Origin: an uncultured delta proteobacterium
Lineage (GTDB): Bacteria > Myxococcota > Myxococcia > Myxococcales > Myxococcaceae
NCBI GenBank assembly: GCA_963771175.1
Contig: CAVYSY010000058.1
Location: forward strand, 1-64,000
DNA: 64,000 bases
Direction of reading: 5' to 3'
Below are positions 2,379-34,973 of the stretch, one piece after another. How positions within the stretch are numbered: position 1 is the stretch's first letter; every line of letters starts with the position of its first letter. The position numbers and the translations under genes were made by a program. Under the pieces are notes generated by a model that made no database searches, was not told where the DNA came from, and saw only the letters and a list, made by a program, of their open reading frames with translations.

Positions 2379-4210
2379 CTACGTGCCTCCTCCCCAGATA
2401 GCCATTCCTCCTGTGTGAGGAGCGGCGAGCTGGTGGGCTCTTGTCGTGATGAGCTGCATCCTGCCGACATCCTGGTGGTGATGCCATGAATAGCCAGTGG
2501 GCGGCTTCGTGGAGGTTGGCAGTTTGTCGATGGCTTCCGGGCTCAGTCCGAGCGCGCGCCCCAGCGAGGGGTCTTCACGAATGGATTTGAACAGCTTCTG
2601 GTTGGCCGCCTTGTAGTGCGCGAGGCGATCCCTGCTTCCGATGTGCACGTCATCCAAGAGGGTTTCAAAGCTCGTGTCGAACTCAGGAAAGCCATCCTTG
2701 TCGAACCCGATGGTGGTCTTTCCATCCGAGATCCTCTGCCCGGAACGATTGCGCCCCAGATTCACGATGGGTTCGGGTGGGTTCCTCGTATTCTTGTACG
2801 GGATGATCCTGCCGTCGGAGGTGAGCTGAGGCTTGCGCCACGGCTCGATGAATTGCAGCCGGTATCTGCCCGGCGAGGAACGTGGGCTCCCCCCGGAATG
2901 GGGGAGGGAGTTGGCACTCCCGTTACCGCCCGCCCCCCGTGCTCCGGTGTTGGCCATGTGCAGCACATAGGTGGCACTGAGGGCGGGAGCCGCGGCGCTG
3001 ACGACGCCACCCACGGGCACGGCCACCAACCGCACCGCCATCAGGCCGTCGCCCGAGAGGGAGAGAAGGGGAATGGAGACATTGCCCAGCCTTCCGCCCC
3101 AGGAGGCCGCCTTCGCGGCGCCCGCACCCGAGGTGCCCACCAGCAGCACCACTCCAGTGGCGAGGCGTGACATGGTGCGCACCCTCTCCGCATGGGGCTT
3201 GTGGCGAAACTCCTCCCAGTGCTGGGGCGCATTCTCGTACAGCGCTCGCACCACTCCCGGCAGCTGCGTCAGGCCCTCCAGCGTCTCTCCCGGGTGGAAG
3301 ACGAGCCGGTAGAGGCCCTCCACCGTGTCCACCACGGCCAGCACGGCCCCCTCCGCCACTGGCAGCAACACCCCGTTGTCTGGCGCGTAGAGGCCCACCG
3401 GGAGCGACCCGTGCGGCACCCGCAGGGTGTTGTCCACCGGGAAAAGGTACCCGCCGTCGATGGCGTAGAAGGGGCCCACCTCGAAGCGGTCGACGCGCAG
3501 GGTGCCGTCCTGCGCCAGCACCACCTCGCCCGCCTTCTGCACGGCCACACCCGTGGCGGGCTTCACCAGGTAGCCATCCGGGCGCACCACCAGCAGCCGG
3601 GCGAAGCGGCGCATGCGCGCGTGCAGCTCGTCGCGCGACACCGGGACGCCGCCCGTGGCCACCTCCAGCAGCAGGTGCGCCGCCATGCGCCGCGGGCCAA
3701 AGTTGCCCAGCGTCACCGGCGTGGCCAGCAGGTGCGGCAGCAGCTCCATTGCCTGCGTGGGGGAGAGCGTGCGTCGTCCTCGGGGAGTGCGCTCGTGGGC
3801 ACCCCAGCCTCCACGAGAAAGCCCTGAAACCAGTCCAAGCTCATGGATACGGCGTAGGGGCGACCGTCACCCACCCCATCCGGCCAGCCGAGTCTCTCCG
3901 CTCCCCAATCATCCAGCGGGTCCACCTCGGCAGGGTTGGACGTCGGGCGGCGGGCGAGCGTGCGGGCCCCCTCGTTCTCCGCCGTGCGACCATCCCAGTC
4001 TACTCGGGCGGTACGCGTTCCTCTGCGGGCGTGTCCAGGCGCTCAGGCGGGGTGAGGGACCAGTGGGCATTGGCCGATGAGCCCCCTGGGGGAGGCATCA
4101 GCGGCCCTCGGCACGCACCCGGACAGCAGCACCAGAGCCACCCCTGTCGTCAGCACACTGGCCAGGGACCGCCACCGCTGCGTCCCCGTGTCGAACGATG
4201 GCAGGAGCAT
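2379..4210 (-). CDS. Lipoprotein polymorphic toxin with C-terminal WHH/HNH nuclease; frameshifted in N-terminal part
   Basis: C-terminus GYSWHHHQDVGRMQLI..AH..PHTGGMAIWGGG is a WHH nuclease signature. N-terminal lipobox VLLSGC is in the frame starting at 4210. Main ORF is 2379-3749. Confidence 0.8.
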
Positions 4211-7415: not shown

Positions 7416-8162
7416 CTAGCCGACCGTCTCCGCGTACGTCATCACCAGGAACATCACCGCGTCCACGTTGCCCACGTTGCGGTAGACGTGCGCCACGTCC
7501 GCCTCGAACAGGATGGAGTCTCCCGCGGCCAGCACGTGACGCTCGTCCCCTCGGTCGATCTCCACCTGCCCCACCGTCACCACGAGGTTCTCCATCGTCC
7601 CCGGCGGGTGCGGCTCCGCGCGCTCCACCGCGCGCGCGGCCAGGTGCAGCTCATAGAACTCGACGCGCCTGGGCTCGTCGAACGGGAAGAGCGCGCGCGA
7701 CGTGAAGCTGCCGTCGTGCGAGGCGAGCACCTTCGCCTGCGTGGCGCGCATCAACCGCGTGCCGCTCTGGGCGGTAGTGCTGATCAACGCCGAGAACGGG
7801 ATGCCCAGCGACCGGGCGATCTTCCAGATGACGTTGATGGTGGGGGCGCTCTGCCCGAGCTCGATCTGCCCCAGCATGGCCCGGCTCACCCCGGACGCCT
7901 TGGCGAGCCGCTCCAGGGAGAGGCCACGATGGGTGCGCAGGCGGCGGAGGTTGCGACCGACGATGGGCGCCAGGTCAGCCGAGGACTCCCCGTGCGCGAC
8001 CTCGTAGGTCCACTCCTCCTCGGAGCTGGGGGGCACGGCAGGGGCCTGCTGGGGAGCAGCCGCCTTACCAGCCGGCTCCCGCTTCCGTCCTCGACCCTTG
8101 GGGGCCGAGGGAGTCTCTGCCTCCGGCTTCTGCGGAGGGGTGTTTTCCCGAACCGATTTCAC
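7416..8162 (-). CDS. XRE-family HTH plus cupin transcriptional regulator (SutR/PuuR-like architecture)
   Basis: HTH NLRRLRTHRGLSLERLAKASGVSRAMLGQIELGQSAPT. Cupin HPPGTME..GDSILFEADVAHVYRN. GTG start overlaps the stop of the upstream small ORF. Confidence 0.9.
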   Translation of the reverse strand: MKSVRENTPPQKPEAETPSAPKGRGRKREPAGKAAAPQQAPAVPPSSEEEWTYEVAHGESSADLAPIVGRNLRRLRTHRGLSLERLAKASGVSRAMLGQIELGQSAPTINVIWKIARSLGIPFSALISTTAQSGTRLMRATQAKVLASHDGSFTSRALFPFDEPRRVEFYELHLAARAVERAEPHPPGTMENLVVTVGQVEIDRGDERHVLAAGDSILFEADVAHVYRNVGNVDAVMFLVMTYAETVG

Positions 8163-8296
8163 GTAGGCCAGACCATGACCCACACCCATACCGGCGTCCA
8201 GAGAGTCATGGGGGCGGGCGACCGGGTAGACGAAGGCCTGGGCTCACGTCGCTTCCGGAACTCGTCGAGGTTGATGATTTCGGCGACCTGGCTCAT
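8159..8296 (-). CDS. Putative 45-aa microprotein
   Basis: MSQVAEIINLDEFRKRREPRPSSTRSPAPMTLWTPVWVWVMVWPT, with a GGAG RBS upstream and a GTGA overlap with the regulator. Confidence 0.55.
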   Translation of the reverse strand: MSQVAEIINLDEFRKRREPRPSSTRSPAPMTLWTPVWVWVMVWPT

Positions 8297-10372: not shown

Positions 10373-11560
10373 TCAGCGGTACTTGAGCCAGGCCGCGAGG
10401 ATGTCCCCCACCATGCGCCCCATGGGGACACCATGCTTGCGGGCGAGCGCCTCCAGGGCCTCGTGCTGCGAGGCGGTGAGGGGCACCGGGAGGGTGCGCT
10501 CGGAGGAGGGCTCCTCGACGGGCGGGGCCGACTCCTCCATCTCCAGCATCGCCCCACCGAGGGGCGGCGTGGGCATGAGCACGGCCGGCGTGGGACGGAG
10601 CCGCAGGTGCTCCTCCTCCAATTCGTCGAGGAAGAGCTGCTTGAGGAAGTTGGAGAGGTGGAGGCTGGTGGGGGTGAACTCGTACGCGTTGAGGAAACGG
10701 TCGAGGTCCTGCTGGAAGTGCCAGGCCGTGGGGTAGCGCTTGTCGCGGTCGCGCTCCAGGGCCTTCATGAGGATGGCTTCCACGGACTCGGGGATGTCCG
10801 CGCGGAAGTACGAGGGCGCATACACCTTGCCCTCGACGATGCCGCGCATGACGGCCACGTCGGACTCGCCCGTGAAGAGCTTGAAGCCGGTGAGCCACTC
10901 GTAGAGGACGACGCCCAGGGAGAAGACGTCGCTGCGGTGATCCAACGGCTTGCCCAGACACTGCTCGGGACTGAGGTAGCTGAGCTTGCCGCGCAGCTCG
11001 CCGGCGCGCGTGTGCTCCGCCCGGTTGGCGGCCTTGGCGATGCCGAAGTCCAGCACCTTCACCGTGCCGTCGAAGCACACGAAGATGTTCTCCGGCGTCA
11101 CGTCCCGGTGGACGATGTTCAGCGGGGCGCCGTACAGGTCCACCTTCTGGTGCGCGTAGTGGAGGCCCTCGCACACGGACGAGGCGATCTTCAGCGCGTA
11201 CACCATGGGGAAGGGAATCCCCAGCGACTCGGCCTTGGGGACGACCCGTCGCATGTCCCGACCGAAGAGGTACTCCATACCGATGAAGTAGCTGTCGCCC
11301 ACCTTCCCCAGGTCGTGGATCTGCACGATGTTGGGGTGGTTGAGCTGGGCGGCCAGCCGCGCCTCGTTGAGGAACATGCGCACGAAGGCGGACTGCTGGG
11401 ACAGATGCGGCCGGATGCGCTTGATGACGACGGGCTTCTCGAAGCCGTCCGGGCCGGACTGATGGGCGAGGAACACCTCCGCCATTCCGCCCACGGCGAG
11501 GCGATCGATGAGCGTGTACTGGCCGAACGGCACGGGTGCGCGGGGGGCTGCTTGGGACAT
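10373..11560 (-). CDS. Cytoplasmic Ser/Thr protein kinase with C-terminal ribbon-helix-helix-like tail
   Basis: Motifs GGMAEV, HRDVTPEN, DFG, GKLSYLSPEQ. Tail TLPVPLTASQHEALEALARKHGVPMGRMVGDIL. Confidence 0.9.
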   Translation of the reverse strand: MSQAAPRAPVPFGQYTLIDRLAVGGMAEVFLAHQSGPDGFEKPVVIKRIRPHLSQQSAFVRMFLNEARLAAQLNHPNIVQIHDLGKVGDSYFIGMEYLFGRDMRRVVPKAESLGIPFPMVYALKIASSVCEGLHYAHQKVDLYGAPLNIVHRDVTPENIFVCFDGTVKVLDFGIAKAANRAEHTRAGELRGKLSYLSPEQCLGKPLDHRSDVFSLGVVLYEWLTGFKLFTGESDVAVMRGIVEGKVYAPSYFRADIPESVEAILMKALERDRDKRYPTAWHFQQDLDRFLNAYEFTPTSLHLSNFLKQLFLDELEEEHLRLRPTPAVLMPTPPLGGAMLEMEESAPPVEEPSSERTLPVPLTASQHEALEALARKHGVPMGRMVGDILAAWLKYR

Positions 11561-11723
11561 CGGGAGCGGCAGGATAGCGCCCCGGGGGCCCCGGCGGCCA
11601 AGGGAGTTACAGGACGCACGCCTCCCCTCCCCCGCGCGAGCCCTCTTGCACCGCTTCCGAGGGACATATAACTTATCCGCGTCAGGTCCTCGGAGCTTAT
11701 AAAAATAAGGTCTCTCGATTTCC

Positions 11724-12190
11724 ATGGATGAGCTCGACTCCCGCATTGTCGATCTGCTGCAGCGCGACGGCCGCGCCACGCAGCTGGAGATCTCCCGCAC
11801 GGTGGGGCTGTCCCAGCCGGCGGTGGCCGAGCGCATCCGCAAGCTCGAGGAGCACAGGGCGTCATCACCGGCTACACGGCGCGCGTGGACGCGGCGAAGC
11901 TGGGCAAGGACATCACCGCCTTCATCGGCGTGAGCATCGAGCACCCGAAGTACTTCGACGGCTTCGCCCGGAAGGTGCTCGCGATGCCCGAGGTGCTCGA
12001 GTGCCACCGCGTCGCCGGCCAGGACTCGTACCTGCTCAAGGTGAGGACGTCGAACACGCAGCACGCTCGACACGCTGCTCGTGGAGACGCTGCGGACCAT
12101 CCCCGGCGTCACCCGCACCCACACCACCATCGTGCTCTCCTCCATCAAGGAAGAGACGTACGTCTCGCCCGAAGTGCCGAAGGAGACTGA
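11724..12190 (+). CDS. Lrp/AsnC family regulator; frameshifted
   Basis: MDELDSRIVDLLQRDGR..VGLSQPAVAERIRKLEE, then PEVLECHRVAGQDSYLLKV in another frame. Confidence 0.9.
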
Positions 12191-18630: not shown

Positions 18631-19053
18631 TCAGAACAGGCTCATCTGGGACTTGTCTTCCTCTTCCTTGCTCGTGCCGCGAGCGGGCAGCGGGGTGAAG
18701 CCGTGCTTCGCCGCCCATTCCGGAGCCGGTCCGGCCCAGCGGAAGCGGTCCATGAGCACCTTGCCCTTCGGGTCGAACTCGACGCCCTCGGCCACCAGCA
18801 ACTCCCGCTGGTTGTACCCCTGCGTGCTGATGCCTCCCGAGCGGTTGATGATGCGCTGCCAGGGCACCTGGGCGGCTCGCGGCCCCAGGTCCCCCATCGC
18901 GAGGCCCACGATCCGGGCATCGCACCCTCCTCCCACGATGAGCGCGATGTCGCCGTAGGTCGACACCTGACCTCGCGGCACCTGCTCGACGACCTGGTAG
19001 ATGCGCTCGAAGAACCTTCGCTCGTGCATGGTGATGGTGATCGTTGTGGACAT
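18631..19053 (-). CDS. Alkyltransferase-like protein (MGMT family, Atl/YbaZ-type)
   Basis: VPRGQVSTYGDIA..ARIVG..VPWQRIINRSG..LLVAEGV, with Trp in place of the catalytic Cys. Confidence 0.9.
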   Translation of the reverse strand: MSTTITITMHERRFFERIYQVVEQVPRGQVSTYGDIALIVGGGCDARIVGLAMGDLGPRAAQVPWQRIINRSGGISTQGYNQRELLVAEGVEFDPKGKVLMDRFRWAGPAPEWAAKHGFTPLPARGTSKEEEDKSQMSLF

Positions 19054-19229
19054 GTCCTCTCCAGTCAGATTCCGCCTACTACCTCGGAGGACAGGTGAGA
19101 GGGAAGTTTGTACTACGTCCTACGTCACGCACCCAACCCGACAGGCGCGGAAGTGGAGGTGCTGGCCAGGAGAGGGAGGCGCTAGGGAGCTCCGCCTCGG
19201 CGAGCAACCCGCCAGCACCGGCGTGACGT

Positions 19230-19699
19230 TCAGACTTCCTCGTCGGGCAGGAGCGTGAGTAGCAGCTCGTCGTCGGGACCGCGCGGGAGCCAACCGGGCG
19301 GCGGGGGCGTAGCGAGGAGTGCATCGCCGGCCTTGTCGGCGCGCTCCTTATGGGTTTCTGGGGTGAAGGCTACCCACGTGCCGAGCGCAACGGCAACCTT
19401 GAGGCGGTTTGCGTCGTCCAGCACGGCCGGCCAGCCGTTGGGGAGTACGCCCACAGTTCGCGCACGAGCTGGCCGCGCACTAGCCGCGTGACCTGATTGC
19501 TCCGCTCCGCTTCGGCCAGCAGTCCACTGAACACCTGCACTCCGGCGATGTCGTCCGGACCAAGCTCCTCGGCCAGCGCCACCAGCGACGCGGTCGGGCG
19601 CGCCTCGGCGAAGGCGGTGAGCGAGTCGTAACCTCGCTCGCGGACCCGCTCATACAGGCGCGCTTTGATGTTGCCCTCCCAAGCACGTCCGTCGCTCAT
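19230..19699 (-). CDS. Myxobacterial immunity-type protein (often auto-annotated as NUDIX hydrolase); frameshift near 19455
   Basis: MSDGRAWEGNIKARLYERVRERGYDSLTAFAEARPTASL continues in a second frame as LPNGWP..PPPGWLPRGPDDELL. The family is recalled as the neighbour of DUF2380 lipoproteins. Confidence 0.65.
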
Positions 19700-19885
19700 C
19701 TCCCACCACAGCGGATGAAGTTCATCGGGATCTCTGTACAACTTCATGCGCTCCGCGACGATCTGGGTGTAGCGCAGGCTCCGCCCCGGGCCAGGCGGTG
19801 GCTTCAGCGACACACAGGCGTTGGACAGGAGGGCCAGGGCAAGCAGCAGCCCCGTCCCCCTCGCCCCTGGCGAGTCAGCGCGCAT
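19700..19885 (-). pseudogene. Internally deleted lipoprotein toxin remnant (DUF2380-like)
   Basis: The lipoprotein leader MRADSPGARGTGLLLALALLSNACVSL..LRYT joins directly to a C-terminal-like IVAERMKLY. Only about 60 codons remain. Confidence 0.55.
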
Positions 19886-19933
19886 TGTCCACCCCAAAGG
19901 ATTCCAGGCGCGTGAGGTAGCGCCATGGCCGGC

Positions 19934-20920
19934 TCAGAGCTTCAGCCCGTTGCCGAGCCGTTTGCGCAATGGCTCCAACGCCCGCGTGGAGAGTCCCATC
20001 TCCCGGAGGGAGAGCTGGCGCAGCGCGGGTAGCGCCTTTGGCGAGCGGAAGGCCAGCGCGCCGTCCTCGCTCAGCTCGTTCCGATCCAGCTCCAGGCGCC
20101 GCAGGTTCGTCAGCACCTTGCTGGCCGCGAGCGCCTCGGCGCCTTCGTCGGAGAGGGAATCGCGGTTGAGGGCGAGCAGCTCCAACGACTGGAGAGGCTT
20201 CGCGCGGGCCAGCACGGCGGCGCCCTCGTCGGAGAGCCCCGTCGCCGTCAGGTAGAGCCGCACCAGGGAGGGCCGGAGCCCCGCGAGCGCCTCGGCGCCC
20301 TCGTCCCCGAGCTCCTCGTTGCCCGTCAGGCTGAGCGAGCGCAGGCCCGACAGGGCCTCGCTCCGGGCCAGTGAGGACACCCCCTCCAGGTCCGCCGAGG
20401 AAAGCACCAACCCCTCCAGCCGGCCGACGTGCGCGCCCGAGGCCAGCGCCTCGACAGCCGCGTTCACCCCACCGCCCGACAGCTTCAACCAGCGGACCTG
20501 CTCGAACCACGGCTGCGCCACGGCCCGGGCCAGCTCCTTCCCCTTCCCCTTCCGGACCTCCAGGTTCAGCCGGTGGATGGGCTCGAGCGCGAAGAGCGAA
20601 GCCCCATGCTCGGCGAGGTTCTCCTCGGAGAGGGACACCTCCTCGACGAAGCCGCGGCTGAAGTGGAAGTCGGACGCGCCCAGCTCCTTCAGTCCGGCCA
20701 TCCACGCCTTGCCGTGCTCCCGCAGCAGCGTATCCACCCGCTTGCGCAGGTAGAGCCGCCGCGCCGGATCCATCCCCCGACCAGCGAGCGCCACCTGCGC
20801 CCGGATGAGCTCGGCGCGTGGAGCATCGTCCTCGCGGAAGGCCTCCGCGCAGGCCAGACGGGCCTCCAGTTCCTCCGGGTGGGCGGCCACTCGAGCCACC
20901 AGCGCGCTATCAGGCTTCAT
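19934..20920 (-). CDS. TIGR02996-like N-terminal domain plus leucine-rich repeats (328 aa); retron-associated gene
   Basis: N-terminal LVARVAAHPEELEARLACAEAFRE.D.PRAELIRAQ, then FSRGFVE, then repeats LRSLSLTGNEELGDEGAEALA, LVRLYLTATGLSDEGAAVLA and LRRLELDRNELSEDGALA. ATG 20918-20920 overlaps the RT stop 20917-20919. Confidence 0.85.
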   Translation of the reverse strand: MKPDSALVARVAAHPEELEARLACAEAFREDDAPRAELIRAQVALAGRGMDPARRLYLRKRVDTLLREHGKAWMAGLKELGASDFHFSRGFVEEVSLSEENLAEHGASLFALEPIHRLNLEVRKGKGKELARAVAQPWFEQVRWLKLSGGGVNAAVEALASGAHVGRLEGLVLSSADLEGVSSLARSEALSGLRSLSLTGNEELGDEGAEALAGLRPSLVRLYLTATGLSDEGAAVLARAKPLQSLELLALNRDSLSDEGAEALAASKVLTNLRRLELDRNELSEDGALAFRSPKALPALRQLSLREMGLSTRALEPLRKRLGNGLKL

Positions 20921-22345
20921 CGTCCGAGCAGCTCCTTCACCTCGCGCTGCCAGCGCGCGCCCAGCTCCGGGTGCACCATCCGCACATAGGCCGCGTAGCC
21001 CTCCAGCCAGCGCTCGAAGTCCGGCCGGCCCCTCGCCTGCGAGGCCACCCCGTGCCTGCGGCAGTTGGCGAGGATGGCCTTGAAGCGGCGCCGCTCCTCG
21101 CGCGGGATGGAGACCTTCTGGTTCACCGTGAGGCCCGTCACCCGCTGGCGCGAGCCCTGGCGCATCACCCTCCGCTTCTTGCCGTTCTCGGCGAAGCCCT
21201 CCTGCTGGAGGATGGCGTTGACCCACCACAGGAAGCGGCCCAGGCGCTCGGGGGGCTCGCGGAAGGAGAAGGACAGGTCATCCGCGTAGCGCGTGTAGGT
21301 GGCGCCGAACCTCCCGGCCAGCGCGGTGAGGCGCGCGTCCATGCGCCGGCAGACGAGGTTGGCGATCGCCGGGGACGTGGGCGCTCCCTGCGGCAGCATG
21401 CCCGGCCACACCACCGTCCCGTCCGGCAGCTTCGGACGGTGCGTGGCGAGCCCGGCGAGCACTCCGGCCACCTCCTCGCCATAGCCGTGCGCCAGGAACA
21501 GGCCCTTCACCCGGCGGTAGTGCACCGTGGGGAAGAAGTCCTCGAGGTCCACCCGCACCACCGCCGTGGCCCCCACGTGCGGCTCGGCGTTGCTCACCGT
21601 GGAGCGCCCCTCGATGAAGCCGTGCGCGGCCGGGTGCGGCGGCATGTGCGAGAGCACCTTGTCGAGGAGTGCCCGCTGCACCTCCTTGAGCCTCTGGCGC
21701 GGCGCCGAGATGCGGCGCACCCCGCCCGAGCGCTTGGGCACCTCGAACTCCACGTAGCCCGAACCGGCCGCCGTGCCCGGACGCATCAGCGCGTCCAGCT
21801 CGGAGTCGTCCACGCCCACCAACTCCGCCACATCGGCCCGGGTGTGCAGCGCGGGCAGCTTGCCCGAGACGGGCGGCGGGCGCCTCGCGGCTCCTGGAGA
21901 AGCCGTGAATCTCGTTCCGGAAGAGGCCGAAGTGCCAGCCGGTCGGGTTCCACCCGCCCACGGACCTGCTGTGGGGATGGCGAGGCGGCCGGGCCCGGCG
22001 ATCCGGTGGCGCCACGTCCGCGAGCCCCAACCGGCGCACCGAGGCCCGAGCGGCATGGGCGACGCGCGAGTCCGGGTCCTTCACGCGCTGGCGGAGCCAC
22101 CGGGCCGCCATCACGCCGGAGAACAGGAGCGGGAGGTGCCGCACGCCCTGGAGCCGCTCGCGAGGGTCCACGCTGCGCAACCTGCGCTCGACGGGTGCCA
22201 GCCACGAGCGGCTCACGTAGAAGCGCGCCACCTCGTACTCGGCGAGTCCCTGGTGACGCTCCAGCAGTTCGGTGATGCGCTCGTAGTTCGCATCCGGGTC
22301 CGCCAGCAGGGGCTTGAGTTCGAGGAGGAGGCTGGCGAGGTTCAT
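20917..22345 (-). CDS. Retron-type reverse transcriptase with N-terminal HEAT-like helical domain (about 475 aa; one frameshift near 21865-21915)
   Basis: Motifs PKRSGGVRRISAP, region X SNAEPH (NAxxH), DLEDFFPTV, LPQGAPTSP, YTRYADD, and region Y QRVTGLTVN (VTG). The N-terminal part is in ORF 21278-22345 (MNLASLL..VKDPDSRVAHAAR..GWNPTGWHFGLF). Confidence 0.93.
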
Positions 22346-22376
22346 GCCGTGTACCCAGAGTGGCCGAGGATGAAAC

Positions 22377-22539
22377 CGGTGCTCCTGGAGCCGCCGCCAC
22401 CTGCACGGCAGAGGCAGACGAGGTCAGGGTAGCCCGCCAGGCGGACCTCGTACTGCATCGTTCTTCAATGGGTAACGTCAGCAGCCGCGACGTGACATCG
22501 CGGACGGAAGGCTGGCTGCACGCGACCCCAGGAGCACCG
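22377..22539 (-). ncRNA. Retron msr-msd non-coding RNA
   Basis: Perfect 12-bp inverted repeat cggtgctcctgg (22377-22388) / ccaggagcaccg (22528-22539). G residues lie just inside the 5' arm on the transcribed strand. msr-like stems gcagcc/ggctgc and ccgcga/tcgcgg (22481-22519). msd-like stem gcagacgaggtc/gacctcgtactgc (22414-22456). The region ends about 30 bp upstream of the RT start. Confidence 0.8.
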
Positions 22540-22621
22540 TCGACAAGCTCACCACAACCCGGGGCCGAGTGGGAAGGCCATCCGCGGCCCTTGCCCTGCA
22601 TCGGTGTGGTAGGAGAAACGC

Positions 22622-23857
22622 ATGGCGGACTTTGGTATCGACGTCGACCCATGTGAGGTCGGCCTGGACGCGCGGCGGCTGCGGCGCATCGACACGCATT
22701 TCAGCCGGTATGTTGATGACGGGCGGCTCGCGGGCTGGCAGGTGATGGTCTCGCGCCATGGCAAGGTCGCGCACCTGACGTCGTACGGGCTCGCCGACAA
22801 GGAGGCCGGCCGCAAGGTCGAGACGGACACCCTCTGGCGCATCTACTCGATGACGAAGCCGATCACCTCGGTGGCGGCGATGATGCTGTGGGAAGAGGGA
22901 GCATTCGAGCTCTCCGATCCCGTCAGCCGGTGGCTGCCCGAGTTCGCGGAGCCGCGCGTCTACGTCGGAGGGTCGGCGAGCAAACCCGTCACCGTGCCCG
23001 CGATCGAACCCATCCGCGTGTGGCACCTGCTCACGCACACCGCGGGGTTGACGTACGGCTTCCTCCGGGTGCACGTCACCGATGAGCTCCACCGGCTCCG
23101 AGGCTTCGAGCTCGGCGCGCCGGACGGCTTCGACCTCGCCGCGTGCGTCCGCGCGTGGGCGGAGCTCCCGCTCTCCTTCCAGCCCGGTGCGGAGTGGAAC
23201 TACTCGGTGGCGACGGATGTGCTCGGTCGGCTCGTCGAGGTCGTGTCCGGACAGTCACTCGACACCTTCTTCGCGGAGCGCATCTTCGGCCCGCTCGGGA
23301 TGAAGGACACCGCGTTCTGGTGCCCCGAGGACCGCCAGCATCGCCTCGCCGCGCTGTATGCGATGGCTCCCGGGCGCACCGGGCCGGTCCGCGCCGAATC
23401 GGCCGGAAAGCGCATCACGCAGCCTCCGTCCTGGCTGTCGGGCGGCGGCGGGCTGGTGTCGACGACGCGCGACTACACGCGCTTCACCTGGATGCTCCTG
23501 AACGGCGGCGAGCTCGAAGGCACGCGGCTGCTCTCCCCGCGAACGGTCGAGTACATGACCCGGAACCACCTGCCCGGAGGGGCGGACCTCACCTCCTTCG
23601 GTCGGCCGCTGTTCGCCGAGACGCGGTTCGACGGAGTCGGATTCGGGCTCGGCTTCGGCGTGGTCATCGACCCGGTCGCCTACCGCACGCTGTCGAGCGA
23701 GGGCGAGTACCACTGGGGCGGCATGGCGAGCACCGCGTTCTGGGTCGATCCGGCCGAGGACCTGACCGTCGTATTCATGACCCAGCTCCTCCCGTCGAGC
23801 ACCTACCCCATCCGCACACAGCTCCGCCAGCTCGTCTACCAGGCGATCGTCGACTGA
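22622..23857 (+). CDS. Serine hydrolase, beta-lactamase/esterase family
   Basis: SMTK (SxxK), LLTHTAG, WNYS and WGG motifs, with an AGGAG RBS. Confidence 0.93.
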   Translation: MADFGIDVDPCEVGLDARRLRRIDTHFSRYVDDGRLAGWQVMVSRHGKVAHLTSYGLADKEAGRKVETDTLWRIYSMTKPITSVAAMMLWEEGAFELSDPVSRWLPEFAEPRVYVGGSASKPVTVPAIEPIRVWHLLTHTAGLTYGFLRVHVTDELHRLRGFELGAPDGFDLAACVRAWAELPLSFQPGAEWNYSVATDVLGRLVEVVSGQSLDTFFAERIFGPLGMKDTAFWCPEDRQHRLAALYAMAPGRTGPVRAESAGKRITQPPSWLSGGGGLVSTTRDYTRFTWMLLNGGELEGTRLLSPRTVEYMTRNHLPGGADLTSFGRPLFAETRFDGVGFGLGFGVVIDPVAYRTLSSEGEYHWGGMASTAFWVDPAEDLTVVFMTQLLPSSTYPIRTQLRQLVYQAIVD

Positions 23858-23863
23858 GACCTG

Positions 23864-26740
23864 TCAGCCCCCCGCCTCCGGCCCGGGCTCGTCCTCGTCG
23901 AGGAGCGCCAGGAGGGTGTCGCGCGTGCCTCCCGGGGCCTGCCGCACGAGGGTGTTGAAGCGCTGGTTGCTCGCCCGCACCCGCTCGCCGTGCGCCCGCA
24001 TCGTCGCCAGCACGTCCGGCACCATCCACGGCCGGGAGAGCACCTCCAGGTTCTGCGCCAGCTCGCGGTGGTTGCGCGGCGCGGTGAGGCAGGCGGACAC
24101 CCCGGGCTGCGACAGCGAGTAGCGGTAGCAGTCCACCGCGCTCGGGAGCAGCGTGTCCTGGGGCGCTCCCGGCGCGGGCCGCAGGAGGCGCCCATAGCAG
24201 GTGGAGGTGAAGGTCAGCATCCCCGTCCCGCGCGAGAGGGCCTCGGGGAAGAGGGCCGCCTCCGCGCCTGGATGCGCGGCGCTGTGGCGTGTCATCACCA
24301 CCGGCCACGGGTGCTGGCGCAGGGCCTCCAGTGCGATGTCCCGGTGGTGGGTGGAGAAGCCAAAGGCGCGGACCTTGCCCTCGGCGCGCAGGGCCTCGAG
24401 TGCCTCGAAGTTCTCCGCGTCCAGCCGCTCGCGCGAGCGCACCCAGAACAGCAGGAAGACGTCCAGCCGGTCCGTGCGCAGCAGACGCAGCGCGGACTGC
24501 ACGTCCCGCCGAAGCGCCGCGGCTCCCGAATGGTACGTGCCGGCCACCACCACGAGCCCGTCTCGTGCGGTGCGGCCGGAGCGCAGGAAGCGCGTGAGCT
24601 GCGTGTAGCGCGGCTCCCAGAAGAAGGCGTTCACACCGGCCTCACGGGCCTCGGCCAGCGAGCCGACCGACAAGCCGTGGGCCCCCGAGAGCACGAGCGG
24701 CGAGAGGCTCAACCCCGTGCGGCCCAGGGGGCGCCAGGAGCCGTGCAGCGGAGACTCGGGCGGTGGGCGCGCGGGGCTCGCCTTCGCCCGCTGGGAGCGT
24801 GTGGGCCGCCTCTGCTCGATATCGGGGGCGGCCGCGAAGACCTCGTCGGGGAAGACGAGCGTCATGGCCTCCAGATGCGAGACCACCCGCGCCGGCTCGG
24901 AGGGATCGCGCAGCGCGGCGCACAGGCGCTCGAAGGCGGGGCCATCCGCATGGCGCAACAGCCACGTATAGGCGGAGGCACGGACCTCCGCGTCCGGCTC
25001 GGGGACGGGCCCGTACAGCAGTCCGGCCAGGCGCTCGTCGAGGGTTTCACATCCCTCCAGCACCGAGGCCGCCGCGACCCGGGACATGGGCGAGGTATCG
25101 AGCGACAAGCGCAACAGCGCGCTCAGCTCCTCCCGCTCGCCCTCCGCCTGGAGCAACTCGGCCGCGCGTGCGCGAATCCACGGGTCCGGAGACCGCGCAC
25201 CCGCGAGCCCGGCGGAGCGCAACTCCGTGGATGGCACTTCATGTCGGCACGAGACGAGGCGTGCCATCGCCGCACGGCGCACCGATAGGTCCGGGTCGCT
25301 CGTGCAGGCCACCCGCGCGGAATCCGTATCCAGCACGGCGGCGCGGATCCACGGGTCCTCGCTCTCGGCCGCCGCGCGAATCTCCTCGGGGGAGAGTCCC
25401 TCCCGAGCCACGAGCCCGGCCAGCACCACCGCTCGGACCGAAGGGTCCACGTCCTTCGCGGTCCGAGCAAGAAGGGTCTCGTCCTCCGAGAAGACCGCCG
25501 CCTCCGCCACCGCGCGACGCTCGCGAGGAGAACGGGCCCTGGGCGCGAAGGCCACCAGCGCACGCGCATACGCCGCGATGGCCTCCGGAGCCACTGGCCG
25601 CTGCTCCCATGCGGCGATGACGACCTCGCGCACCAACTCATCCGGGTCATCGAACGCGGCCAGCACCTCCGCGCGGCTCTCCGGGTCATGAACGAGTCCC
25701 GAGAGCGCCGCGCGCCGCACGGCCGGCTCGGGGTGTCGGGCCAGGAGGCGGACGCGCTCCAACAGTCCAGCATGGGCCCTGCGCGCGGCCACCCACGCCG
25801 CCCAGCCCACCGCCCCCGGCCGGGGTGGTTCGTCGAGAATCCGCGAGGCGAGGGCCACGTCGTCCACATCGAGGCGTTCGAGCAGCGCACGGACCTCGTC
25901 CGCGGCATGGGGGACGCGCGGCTCATCCAGCCAGCGCATCGCGAGCCGGAGCGCCTCCGGGTCACGCCGCTCGCGCAGGCGGCGCCGTGCGAGGAACCGT
26001 AGCGGCTCGTGGGGGTCGCCGAGCCACTTCACCAGCTCGGACACGGGGATCTCCGAGGCGGGCATCCGTTCGAGCCGCGCCGTCACCACCGCTGGGTCCT
26101 CGTTGTCGAGGGCCCCTGGAGCCACCGGGAGCGGCGCGGGCACGGGAGGAGTCATGGAAGACGAGGTCGCCCCACCCCACACGCCTTCGAGGTACAGGGA
26201 GGCAGCTCTCACCGCTCGGTGTCGGAACGTCTCCGCCACGGCGTGCACCCGCCGCCGGACGAGAGGGTCCACCTCTCCGAACCAGGCCAGCGCCTGCACC
26301 GCCGCGTTGCGCACGCGCCAGAAGGGGTCCTCCAGCGCTTCCATCAGAAGGTCCAGTGCACCCGTCCCCGCCACCGAGGCCGCGGCCCGGATGGCGGCGC
26401 GGCGCACCCACCAGACCGGCTCCTCGTGGAGGGCTCGCGACGCCTGCGGCAACGACTCTTCCACCCCCAGCCGCGCCAGTGCACGCCAGGCCCGGTCTCG
26501 GACGCTGGGCATCGGATCGCGCAGGGCCTCCAACAGGGCCGGAGCGAAGCCACCATCCCGAGCCTCACCGAGCCGGCGCGCGGCGGAGGCTCGGACCTCG
26601 GCGTCCTCGTCCGTCAGCAGCGCCTGCCGCAGGGAATACCGGCCCGGGGGCACCGAGAGCTCCACGGCATCCACCGCCTCGCGCCGCACCTCGGCGTTCT
26701 CGTCGAGCAGCCGCACGGCGGCGGGGTCCAGGAGGGTCAT
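23864..26740 (-). CDS. HEAT-repeat protein fused to a C-terminal aldo/keto reductase-like domain (958 aa)
   Basis: Many DxxxxVRxxA repeats over about 640 aa, then WRPLGRTGLSLSPL..SALRLLRTDRLDVFLL..EGKVRAFGFSTH..YRYSLSQPGV. Confidence 0.8.
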   Translation of the reverse strand: MTLLDPAAVRLLDENAEVRREAVDAVELSVPPGRYSLRQALLTDEDAEVRASAARRLGEARDGGFAPALLEALRDPMPSVRDRAWRALARLGVEESLPQASRALHEEPVWWVRRAAIRAAASVAGTGALDLLMEALEDPFWRVRNAAVQALAWFGEVDPLVRRRVHAVAETFRHRAVRAASLYLEGVWGGATSSSMTPPVPAPLPVAPGALDNEDPAVVTARLERMPASEIPVSELVKWLGDPHEPLRFLARRRLRERRDPEALRLAMRWLDEPRVPHAADEVRALLERLDVDDVALASRILDEPPRPGAVGWAAWVAARRAHAGLLERVRLLARHPEPAVRRAALSGLVHDPESRAEVLAAFDDPDELVREVVIAAWEQRPVAPEAIAAYARALVAFAPRARSPRERRAVAEAAVFSEDETLLARTAKDVDPSVRAVVLAGLVAREGLSPEEIRAAAESEDPWIRAAVLDTDSARVACTSDPDLSVRRAAMARLVSCRHEVPSTELRSAGLAGARSPDPWIRARAAELLQAEGEREELSALLRLSLDTSPMSRVAAASVLEGCETLDERLAGLLYGPVPEPDAEVRASAYTWLLRHADGPAFERLCAALRDPSEPARVVSHLEAMTLVFPDEVFAAAPDIEQRRPTRSQRAKASPARPPPESPLHGSWRPLGRTGLSLSPLVLSGAHGLSVGSLAEAREAGVNAFFWEPRYTQLTRFLRSGRTARDGLVVVAGTYHSGAAALRRDVQSALRLLRTDRLDVFLLFWVRSRERLDAENFEALEALRAEGKVRAFGFSTHHRDIALEALRQHPWPVVMTRHSAAHPGAEAALFPEALSRGTGMLTFTSTCYGRLLRPAPGAPQDTLLPSAVDCYRYSLSQPGVSACLTAPRNHRELAQNLEVLSRPWMVPDVLATMRAHGERVRASNQRFNTLVRQAPGGTRDTLLALLDEDEPGPEAGG

Positions 26741-33480: not shown

Positions 33481-34969
<1,489 letters not shown>

Positions 34970-34973
<4 letters not shown>

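Follow-up and report, generated by a model that had tools for sequence, protein, structure and literature searches.

Does a reverse transcriptase (RT) gene that stands between a structured noncoding RNA (ncRNA) and a leucine-rich repeat (LRR) protein gene represent a retron type of its own, and which of its neighbors belong to it? The question is raised by a locus in a 64,000-nucleotide (nt) stretch of DNA, hereafter the window, from an uncultured delta proteobacterium of the Myxococcaceae (GenBank assembly GCA_963771175.1, contig CAVYSY010000058.1, positions 1 to 64,000; G+C content, 68.9%). The initial annotation had proposed a three-part retron, composed of the ncRNA, a HEAT-extended RT, and the LRR protein as its cognate partner, and regarded it as a candidate uncharacterized type. 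Our comparison with related loci indicates that the window probably carries one copy of a retron lineage found mainly in Myxococcota, sister to but distinct from type XIII and equipped with repeat-protein partners. The core of this lineage likely consists of an upstream protein that combines HEAT repeats with an aldo-keto reductase-like domain (HEAT-AKR), one or more ncRNAs of ~165 nt, and an RT with a HEAT-like N-terminal domain (HEAT-RT), with the LRR gene present in about half of the loci. The three-part composition proved incomplete, since the most constant partner, HEAT-AKR, had been missed because it stands apart from the ncRNA, on the far side of a divergent beta-lactamase-family gene.

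For the survey, an alignment of 16 RT homologs was scanned against one genome per species; 597 stretches matched, of which 548 encode a relative. The best 80 of these 548 relatives (L001 to L080) comprise 63 HEAT-RT loci and 17 canonical type XIII loci (L064 to L080). Downstream counts refer to the 62 HEAT-RT loci whose sequence extends 400 nt or more downstream and upstream counts to the 45 loci that extend 3,500 nt or more upstream. Homologs were listed as the 120 best RT matches and the 120 best LRR matches, and M. xanthus is absent from both sets. Citations of Simon 2019, Mestre 2020, and the 2026 SPIRE survey refer to the parts of these papers that were available.

The ncRNA, RT, LRR, and HEAT-AKR elements all lie on the minus strand, where an intergenic region of 276 nt (22621-22346) is followed in the 5'-to-3' direction by an open reading frame (ORF) from 22345, the RT frame (~21894-20920), and the ORF of the 328-amino-acid (aa) LRR protein. 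The features of the locus are as follows, with the type of evidence in parentheses.

23864..26740, minus strand: HEAT-repeat/aldo-keto reductase-like protein, 958 aa (Pfam HEAT_2, HEAT, and Aldo_ket_red)
22622-23857, plus strand: divergent beta-lactamase-family gene between HEAT-AKR and the ncRNA (Pfam PF00144, 9.8e-74)
22540..22577, minus strand: conserved block that directly precedes the ncRNA (CTTCCC ... GTG.T), possible promoter (alignment of 15 relatives)
22377..22539, minus strand: retron-type ncRNA (msr-msd), bounded by a2 at 22522-22539 and a1 at 22377-22394 (inverted repeat, covariance model)
22511..22513, minus strand: invariant AGC, with G22512 as candidate 2'-OH branching guanosine in a CAGC context (76 of 76 copies)
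22485..22503, minus strand: msr hairpin of 8 bp with near-invariant sequence, presumed RT recognition element (100% of cells paired, 76 copies)
22400..22475, plus strand: predicted msd; multicopy single-stranded DNA (msDNA) of plus sense, start at 22400, hairpin 22414-22456, 3' end roughly at 22465-22480 (AGC-adjacent helix)
21896..22345, minus strand: N-terminal part of the RT, helical HEAT-like domain and start of a disordered linker, frame 1 (tblastn of the homolog P0001)
21880..21900, minus strand: frameshift, one extra base compared with close homologs, within the disordered linker (alignment to homologs)
20917..21894, minus strand: catalytic part of the RT, frame 2, with SNAEPH, YADD, and VTG, stop at 20917-20919 (tblastn, RVT_1, RT_XIII)
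19934..20920, minus strand: TIGR02996/ribonuclease inhibitor (RNI)-like LRR protein, 328 aa, ATG overlapping the RT stop (ORF 20920-19937, stop to 19934)

Scans of 19800-22700 for the sigma-70 consensus and for terminators returned no site. A promoter role of the block at 22540-22577 is therefore a guess, and the interval from the ncRNA to the end of the LRR gene was free of terminator-like sites in the scan.

The reverse transcriptase and its relation to type XIII

The three motifs named in the initial annotation, SNAEPH, YADD, and VTG, are all present in the translation of 22056-20920, and VTG is a marker of retron RTs. The same holds for NAxxH (Simon 2019), represented here by SNAEPH. This translation matches Pfam RVT_1 at 1e-20, and its best PADLOC model is RT_XIII (1.1e-114, 382 bits), followed by RT_other with 337 bits; the best 25 of 56 matching PADLOC families are all retron RT models, and the group II intron model reaches 47 bits versus a cutoff of 300. 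The Protein Data Bank (PDB) matches of the family profile point in the same direction, as those down to 4.6e-16 (14 of the 16 listed) are chains named retron RTs, headed by Ec67 (7e-47) and followed by Ec86, Ec78, Kva2, Ec83, and Eco8. The last two matches are the group II intron RT GsI-IIC (6.5e-11) and a chain termed a "retron-type reverse transcriptase." The traits by which a retron is recognized were thus found as NAxxH in region X, the YADD core, retron RTs as the closest profiles, and linked accessory genes in the form of two recurrent neighbor families, for which no effector activity was identified.

The RT of the window is spread over two reading frames. Residues 1 to 165 of P0001, a 474-aa homolog from Archangium, align at 22345-21851 with 74% identity and residues 150 to 474 at 21894-20920 with 91% identity (tblastn), residues 1 to 148 of the window RT being read from 22345 to ~21900 in a frame different from that of the RT domain. 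Compared with the DNA of L001 and L002, the window contains one extra base, and together with the two-frame alignment this confirms that the locus was rightly described as being in need of frameshift correction. Intact homologs consist of one ORF of 470 to 474 aa, most of the 120 best RT homologs listed are single proteins of 468 to 475 aa, and frame-broken RTs were also seen in 3 of the 80 related loci (L053, L058, and L059), all from metagenome-assembled genomes (MAGs). The extra base may be a true mutation or an assembly error, both of which fit the sequence, and the window copy may be inactive unless the latter applies.

The HEAT extension, which had also been proposed initially, was borne out and lies in the other frame. 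In the structure model of P0001 (predicted local distance difference test [pLDDT], 72.7), residues 1 to 106 form six helices, and the linker of residues 109 to 152, which contains the position of the break, has a pLDDT below 50. The N-domain contains one canonical HEAT-type motif, and precomputed Pfam annotation records HEAT_2 in 10 of the 120 RT homologs listed; the window's own N-terminal ORF had no Pfam match. Homology of this domain to the repeats of HEAT-AKR was considered and rejected, with an hhalign probability of 5% and nothing shared beyond one generic HEAT motif.

A further ORF of 175 aa (19373-19897, minus strand) follows the LRR gene; it is lipoprotein-like by eye, with a signal-like N terminus ending in Cys, and is not conserved near any related RT in the 80 loci. 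It seems to continue from ~19455 in another frame into a 74-aa ORF (19230-19454, minus strand), and the break near 19455 may be a second frameshift, 2.4 kb from that in the RT.

In a maximum likelihood tree of 78 rows, the window and 60 HEAT-RT loci (61 rows) stood apart from the 17 canonical type XIII rows, the support in the Shimodaira-Hasegawa-like approximate likelihood ratio test being 100 on both sides; the tree was midpoint rooted and contained no other retron types, and three frame-broken loci were left out. The placement among retron RTs suggested initially was upheld, in the form of a clade beside type XIII. The tree broadly groups the loci by family, i.e., Myxococcaceae/Archangiaceae, Polyangium, and Kofleriaceae, and the lineage appears to be vertically inherited. 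The 63 HEAT-RT loci stem from Myxococcota with the exception of three planctomycete loci, and the 17 canonical loci come from several phyla. Profile matches, PDB matches, and the tree together point to a retron RT that is nearest to type XIII but belongs to a separate clade with another gene set.

Type XIII retrons (clade 10 of Mestre 2020, comprising Mxa1/Mx162, Sau1/Sa163, Nex2/Ne144, and Mxa2/Mx65) are accordingly the closest system. Both have in common the best RT hidden Markov model (HMM), the N-terminal extension of the RT, an upstream protein of the HEAT/ARM type on the same strand, the order of ncRNA and then RT, the occurrence in myxobacteria, and the apparent vertical inheritance. 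Type XIII is defined by a SWIM protein together with WGR/HEAT-ARM accessory clusters (Mestre 2020), and it is here that the two differ. A homolog of the WH-SWIM protein (cluster 114_1, SWIM_XIII) was detected by tblastn in 16 of the 17 canonical loci but neither in any of the 63 HEAT-RT loci nor in the window, where 49 of the 54 predicted ORFs had no PADLOC match to SWIM and the other five were covered by six-frame tblastn. Likewise, the canonical WGR/ARM proteins found no tblastn match in any HEAT-RT locus. The four canonical loci that were scanned with PADLOC yielded HEAT-ARM/WGR_XIII, SWIM_XIII, and RT_XIII, the last with 514 to 547 bits, compared with 375 to 392 bits for the intact HEAT-RTs of P0001, L002, and L022, whose best model is also RT_XIII but which leave the first ~100 profile positions unmatched. 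The upstream protein of the HEAT-RT loci carries an AKR-like domain and matches one HEAT-ARM_XIII model weakly, an LRR gene may follow the RT, and the ncRNA model described below matches no canonical locus. The RT lineage is therefore best regarded as a sister of type XIII that is distinct from its canonical members, and not as a wholly separate retron type. In the classifications accessible to us it is undescribed; it has no SWIM gene and an ncRNA family of its own. The initial proposal of an uncharacterized type thus stands insofar as no PADLOC model and no searchable paper covers the arrangement, and is to be restricted with respect to the sister position of the RT.

A covarying ncRNA and its predicted msDNA

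The perfect 12-bp terminal inverted repeat that had been noted ~30 bp from the RT forms the outer part of two arms of 18 nt (22377-22394 and 22522-22539) with 89% complementarity, which end 31 nt before the RT start codon at 22345. A perfect inverted repeat of at least 12 bp did not occur in any of 1,000 dinucleotide shuffles of the 276-nt intergenic region. Including both arms, the ncRNA measures 163 nt. From Archangium to Polyangium, the 300-nt region that precedes the RT is strikingly similar, and parts of the ncRNA do not differ at all between Myxococcia and Polyangia. A search of 19000-24000 against Rfam in E-value mode returned no family.

Structural conservation was assessed in two ways. 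A MAFFT alignment of 15 close relatives analyzed with RNAalifold yielded 44 pairs, 9 of which show compensatory changes, located either in the terminal stem or in the hairpin of the msd (the latter at pairs 134/167, 137/164, and 140/161). A covariance model built from 29 copies found 76 matches, i.e., 1 in the window and 75 in 52 of the 80 loci, including a weak, wrong-strand match in L053; the same fold, whose presence next to related RTs had been named as a check, thus occurs in 51 to 52 of 60 loci. The match in the window (22370-22543, minus strand; 165.6 bits, E = 1.8e-34) is the sole one there and ranks third of the 76 by score. The model detected no ncRNA in L022 and L023 and had no match in L062 to L080. 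In the model-fitted alignment, which is biased towards structure, 97.5% of the cells are paired, versus 36 to 52% with partners slid by one to three columns, and double-change cells number 253 versus a shuffled mean of 63. Taken together, a genuine, covarying msr/msd-like ncRNA that accompanies a retron-type RT is supported by the comparative data.

None of the three bases of the AGC trinucleotide varies among the 76 copies; the base before it is U in 50 copies and C in 21. Immediately 5' of it lies a 4-bp helix with 97% of cells paired and 23 compensatory C-G/U-A cells; an alternative msr helix, GCAG/CUGC, was rejected because only 61% of its cells are paired. This position corresponds to the published layout of retrons, in which the a1/a2 stem ends beside the priming G; the context of this G is mostly TAGC and, in Mx162 and Sa163, CAGC (Simon 2019). 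Because of this match, G22512 is proposed as the branching (priming) G, its role following the retron paradigm. The 8-bp msr hairpin is presumed to be the recognition element of the RT, and many distant loci contain an 18-nt anchor from within it with no more than three mismatches. The msDNA would be of plus sense and begin at 22400, with the hairpin 22414-22456 inside it and a predicted length of ~65 to 80 nt. The canonical retron ncRNA (Retron-Eco1/Ec86; Simon 2019) is similar in that the a1/a2 duplex ends by a conserved G in (U/C)AGC, the msd hairpin comes after the msr hairpin, and the RT gene starts within ~30 nt. Unlike the canonical ncRNA, the family described here shows strong sequence conservation across classes, tandem arrays of up to nine copies, and no match in Rfam.

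The tandem arrays are found upstream of a single RT in 14 loci, and the window carries a single copy. Nine copies are present in L034 (L034:6115-7913), three in L027 and L036, and two in L013, L015, L020, L025, L028, L038, L039, L055, L059, L060, and L061. Within arrays, the msr core retains an identity of 0.78 to 1.0 and the a1/a2 arms change together, while the msd hairpin, with 0.21 to 0.68, is the region that varies most between tandem copies. We know of no described retron with tandem ncRNA arrays.

HEAT-AKR and LRR proteins in the neighborhood

HEAT-AKR is the most constant neighbor of the RT lineage. Homologs are encoded upstream and on the same strand in 48 of the 63 HEAT-RT loci, or in 39 of 45 if only loci with sufficient upstream sequence are counted. 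The window protein contains five HEAT_2 stretches, one HEAT stretch, and a C-terminal Aldo_ket_red domain (35.6 bits; cutoff, 24), and an alignment of 41 homologs shows good conservation of this AKR-like domain, with FFWEPxY and GKxRAFGFSTH among the conserved motifs. The only PADLOC match of the window protein is PDLC02919 (HEAT-ARM_XIII), with 42 bits over ~117 residues of generic HEAT repeats. In most relatives HEAT-AKR and the ncRNA are only 40 to 300 nt apart, which makes the beta-lactamase-family gene in the window look like an insertion.

When 655 predicted proteins of the 63 HEAT-RT loci were grouped without bias by single linkage, the RT was recovered in 60 loci, HEAT-AKR in 43 (always upstream, with a median gap of 274 nt), and an LRR cluster in 37, the last including some other LRR paralogs. 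A third neighbor family was present in 12 loci at mixed positions, and all others were in at most 6. Since only two neighbor families recur, the associations of LRR and HEAT-AKR are specific and not a matter of general synteny.

The LRR protein is encoded directly behind the RT, with the ATGA overlap at 20917-20920 formed by the RT stop TGA (20919-20917) and the LRR start ATG (20920-20918). Its assignment as a TIGR02996-like protein with ribonuclease inhibitor-like LRRs proved sound: TIGR02996 is matched at aa 5 to 46 with 29.8 bits versus a cutoff of 29.05, a narrow margin, and orthologs are annotated likewise as "TIGR02996 domain-containing protein." Matches to Pfam LRR_6/LRR_4 were also found. 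The AlphaFold model (pLDDT, 95.5) consists of an N-domain made of helices, a small beta domain, and a horseshoe of the RNI type, for which the best Foldseek matches are ribonuclease inhibitor and the LRRs of NOD2 and NLRP3 (E, ~4e-09; template modeling score, 0.5 to 0.58), and PDB profile matches range from 2e-32 to 1e-24. The protein had no PADLOC match and no enzymatic domain in searches with Pfam, PADLOC, NCBIfam models, and Foldseek, in agreement with the initial statement that it has no obvious nuclease, ATPase, TIR, or pore motif. It resembles the RNI-like LRRs of NOD-like receptors (NLRs) and of GALA-type proteins in the fold and profile of the horseshoe. Unlike NLRs, it has no NACHT/ATPase, F-box, or effector domain, instead has a helical N-domain of the TIGR02996 type together with a small beta domain, and is a protein of 328 aa that is cotranslated with an RT.

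A same-strand LRR gene located 0 to 40 nt after the RT was found in 31 of the 62 assessable loci, down to an RT identity of ~50%. Three forms were distinguished by tblastn with the window protein and inspection of the first downstream ORF, namely, the ortholog of ~325 aa (9 loci), a variant of ~470 aa that carries an additional N-domain (15 loci), and one of ~330 aa (7 loci); all three align along the TIGR02996 domain, the small beta domain, and the LRRs. The nearest relative, L001, does not have the gene, and neither do L003, L005, L009, and L010, any of the six Polyangium loci, or several other subclades. Because it is absent from half of the assessable loci including L001, the LRR gene is facultative and not essential. 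The RT-linked proteins form a tight subfamily with 48 to 73% identity over ~325 aa, whereas the general TIGR02996 family, a large paralogous family of "repeat-companion" proteins in Myxococcota and Gemmataceae whose N-domain is matched at the cutoff, shows 27 to 35% identity and longer proteins. At the same loci, identity is 49 to 67% to the window protein for the LRR and 74 to 88% to P0001 for the RT. The comparison supports a nonrandom linkage of the LRR gene to the RT lineage and its status as a genuine but optional partner; the idea of a cognate partner is thus retained for the linkage and has to be given up for its constancy.

Several observations concern the position behind the RT. The extra N-domain of the 470-aa form (~135 aa; group L020 to L056, e.g., L022:9448-9852) had no Pfam or PADLOC match; it groups with unnamed Atlas clusters of stand-alone hypothetical proteins of 131 to 142 aa with up to 546 members, and a subthreshold Atlas lead (0.89) points to an EVE domain. 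P0241 (778 aa, Kofleriaceae MAG), annotated as a fusion of HEAT-RT and TIGR02996-LRR, was rejected as such, since its junction resembles read-through of a frameshifted RT C terminus into the next ORF, and it was not counted as a Rosetta stone fusion. In the Polyangium loci L013 (L013:4806-5327) and L015 (ORF 59 nt after the RT), a protein of 165 to 173 aa with a long hydrophobic stretch and no Pfam match occupies the LRR position and may be an alternative membrane partner. In L062 and L063, from Planctomycetia/Frigoriglobus MAGs, a gene with an FGE-sulfatase domain overlaps the RT end (e.g., L063:6555-7508), and LRR, HEAT-AKR, and ncRNA are all without a match.

Proposed mechanism, rival explanations, and significance

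In intact copies, the ends of the ncRNA would pair via a1 and a2, the near-invariant msr hairpin would be bound by the RT, synthesis would be primed on the 2'-OH of G22512 within the invariant AGC, and the msd would be copied from 22400 upward on the plus strand into a hairpin msDNA of ~65 to 80 nt. It is quite likely that intact copies synthesize msDNA in this manner. In about half of the lineages, the message of the RT would also yield the LRR protein, whose reading frame comes directly behind. The repeat proteins have no recognizable toxin domain; they are taken as scaffolds or sensors and would bind to the RT-msDNA particle, probably via the HEAT-like N-domain of the RT. The prospects of a physical association of LRR and HEAT-AKR proteins with the RT complex are evenly balanced. 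An output in the form of abortive infection-type phage defense is a tentative proposal, and a domesticated role outside defense is nearly as likely.

A number of points weigh against a retron lineage with repeat-protein partners and a role in defense. The RT frame is broken in the window copy, the RT tree was rooted at midpoint without an outgroup from other retron types, and the high covariation counts stem from the model-fitted alignment, compared with 9 of 44 pairs in the independent MAFFT alignment. The LRR gene is missing in half of the assessable loci, the closest relative among them, and the window, L001, L002, and L015 have no adjacent HEAT-AKR, with other genes intervening in L001 and L015. 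Moreover, L030, L032, and L058 are RT-LRR loci without a detectable ncRNA or HEAT-AKR within 8 kb, even with filters off; their ncRNA may have diverged or be located elsewhere, or the subclade may do without it. None of the partners showed a toxin-like domain in searches with Pfam, PADLOC, NCBIfam models, or Foldseek, grouping of the RT tree by family together with a highly conserved ncRNA is unusual for defense systems, and msDNA, transcript, or protein data for the lineage were not found in the accessible literature.

That the locus is an ordinary, already described type XIII retron of the Mx162 or Mx65 family is improbable. RT_XIII is indeed its best HMM, myxococcal retron RTs carry an N-terminal extension (Simon 2019), a HEAT-type protein stands upstream as in type XIII (Mestre 2020), and PDLC02919 is weakly matched, but the separate clade, the missing SWIM gene, the lower RT_XIII scores with the unmatched N-terminal profile positions, and the failure of the ncRNA model in all 17 canonical loci argue for a distinct lineage. 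Mx162 has a transcript of 241 nt, an msDNA of 162 to 163 nt together with Sa163, and SWIM/ARM partners (Simon 2019, Mestre 2020), and orthology was rejected on the basis of the 163-nt ncRNA and the absence of a SWIM gene, CAGC being shared. In Mx65, the Asn of NAxxH is substituted and the priming context is GAGC (Simon 2019), as opposed to SNAEPH and CAGC in the window. Both exclusions refer to the published descriptions only. In addition, the terms "LRR," "leucine," and "TIGR02996" have zero occurrences each in the main text of Mestre 2020. A rather unlikely alternative concerns the composition, with HEAT-AKR, ncRNA, and HEAT-RT as the functional unit and the LRR protein as a dispensable passenger. 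The far greater constancy of HEAT-AKR (39 of 45 loci) and the ncRNA (51 to 52 of 60) compared with the LRR gene, absent from 31 of 62 loci including L001, would fit a passenger drawn from the large paralogous TIGR02996-LRR family of Myxococcota and Gemmataceae. On the other hand, the overlap or short gap is kept across both deep RT branches and in architectures of ~325 and ~470 aa, the LRR is one of only two recurrent neighbor families, and RT-LRR pairs persist without HEAT-AKR and ncRNA in L030, L032, and L058, all of which speaks for the LRR protein as an optional partner of the lineage.

The remaining two alternatives concern the fate of the element. It is possible, at a probability short of even, that the frameshift is real and that the window contains a decaying pseudogene, i.e., an inert locus without a full-length RT, as suggested by the extra base relative to L001 and L002, the two halves in different frames, and the inserted gene that separates HEAT-AKR from the ncRNA. 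Apart from the break, however, both RT halves are intact, with 74% and 91% identity and no stops, the ncRNA still scores third of 76 copies, and the break lies in a linker predicted to be disordered. The possible second break near 19455 hints at assembly indels, and similar breaks in 3 of 80 public loci all occur in MAGs. A domesticated retron with a cellular role, e.g., in regulation or nucleic acid metabolism, instead of an antiphage function seems somewhat unlikely, and the same idea has been raised for type XIII, for which vertical inheritance and possible domestication were considered (Mestre 2020). It is in line with the grouping of the RT tree by family, the ncRNA stretches invariant between Myxococcia and Polyangia, the constant linkage to a conserved AKR-like protein, and the PADLOC results, according to which only the RT among the four locus ORFs scanned has a defense-type match, HEAT-AKR having the one weak match to HEAT-ARM_XIII. 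In contrast, an LRR gene that comes and goes, tandem msd hairpins that have diverged far beyond the msr core, and an LRR protein less conserved than the RT would fit an arms race.

Beyond the sister lineage of type XIII favored here, a more far-reaching reading is conceivable, which we regard as possible rather than probable. It would posit a separate, phylum-wide retron type in which RT and msDNA act together with a nonenzymatic NLR-like LRR protein and HEAT/AKR-like proteins but without a toxin, either as a sensor platform that presents msDNA or as a domesticated ribonucleoprotein, in contrast to a classical toxin-antitoxin retron. On that reading, some lineages might, with similar reserve, field up to nine ncRNAs that share the msr but carry different msd hairpins.

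Retrons are studied as phage defense systems and as tools for genome editing, and each new type of partner has so far revealed a new mechanism. The lineage would add two partner families free of toxin domains, i.e., the TIGR02996/RNI-like LRR and the HEAT-repeat/AKR-like proteins, as well as an ncRNA whose sequence is conserved across bacterial classes. Natural arrays of multiple ncRNAs on a single RT bear on multiplexed retron editing, and the lineage may serve as a test case for the domestication of vertically inherited retrons, a question open since the myxobacterial msDNA work of the 1990s. For LRR and HEAT-AKR as retron partners, neither a dedicated PADLOC model nor a paper in the searchable literature was found. 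Specifically, the openly searchable literature yielded, among the matches listed, no relevant paper on a retron with a leucine-rich repeat, aldo-keto reductase, HEAT, or SWIM partner, none from 2021 onward on type XIV or myxococcal retrons, and none on TIGR02996, and the available part of the 2026 SPIRE survey makes no mention of LRR, HEAT, aldo-keto, or Myxococcota. For type XIII and its relatives, no mechanism or defense test is described in the available parts of Mestre 2020, Simon 2019, and the 2026 SPIRE survey.

Other parts of the window also match defense models. The ORF at 2382-3749 (minus strand) matches PDC-M17A, a candidate defense protein, with 530.6 bits at profile positions 178 to 461 of 591; since profile position 178 already falls on the first residue of the ORF, its start may be miscalled or truncated. 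A Ser/Thr kinase-type protein at 10376-12148 (minus strand; PD-T4-6 models, 250 bits), a helix-turn-helix protein at 7419-8189 (minus strand; HTH_VI, 48.8 bits), and an RtcR/PspF-like AAA+ regulator at 33708-34970 (plus strand; 344.6 bits) belong to broad families common in myxobacteria and need not be defense genes.

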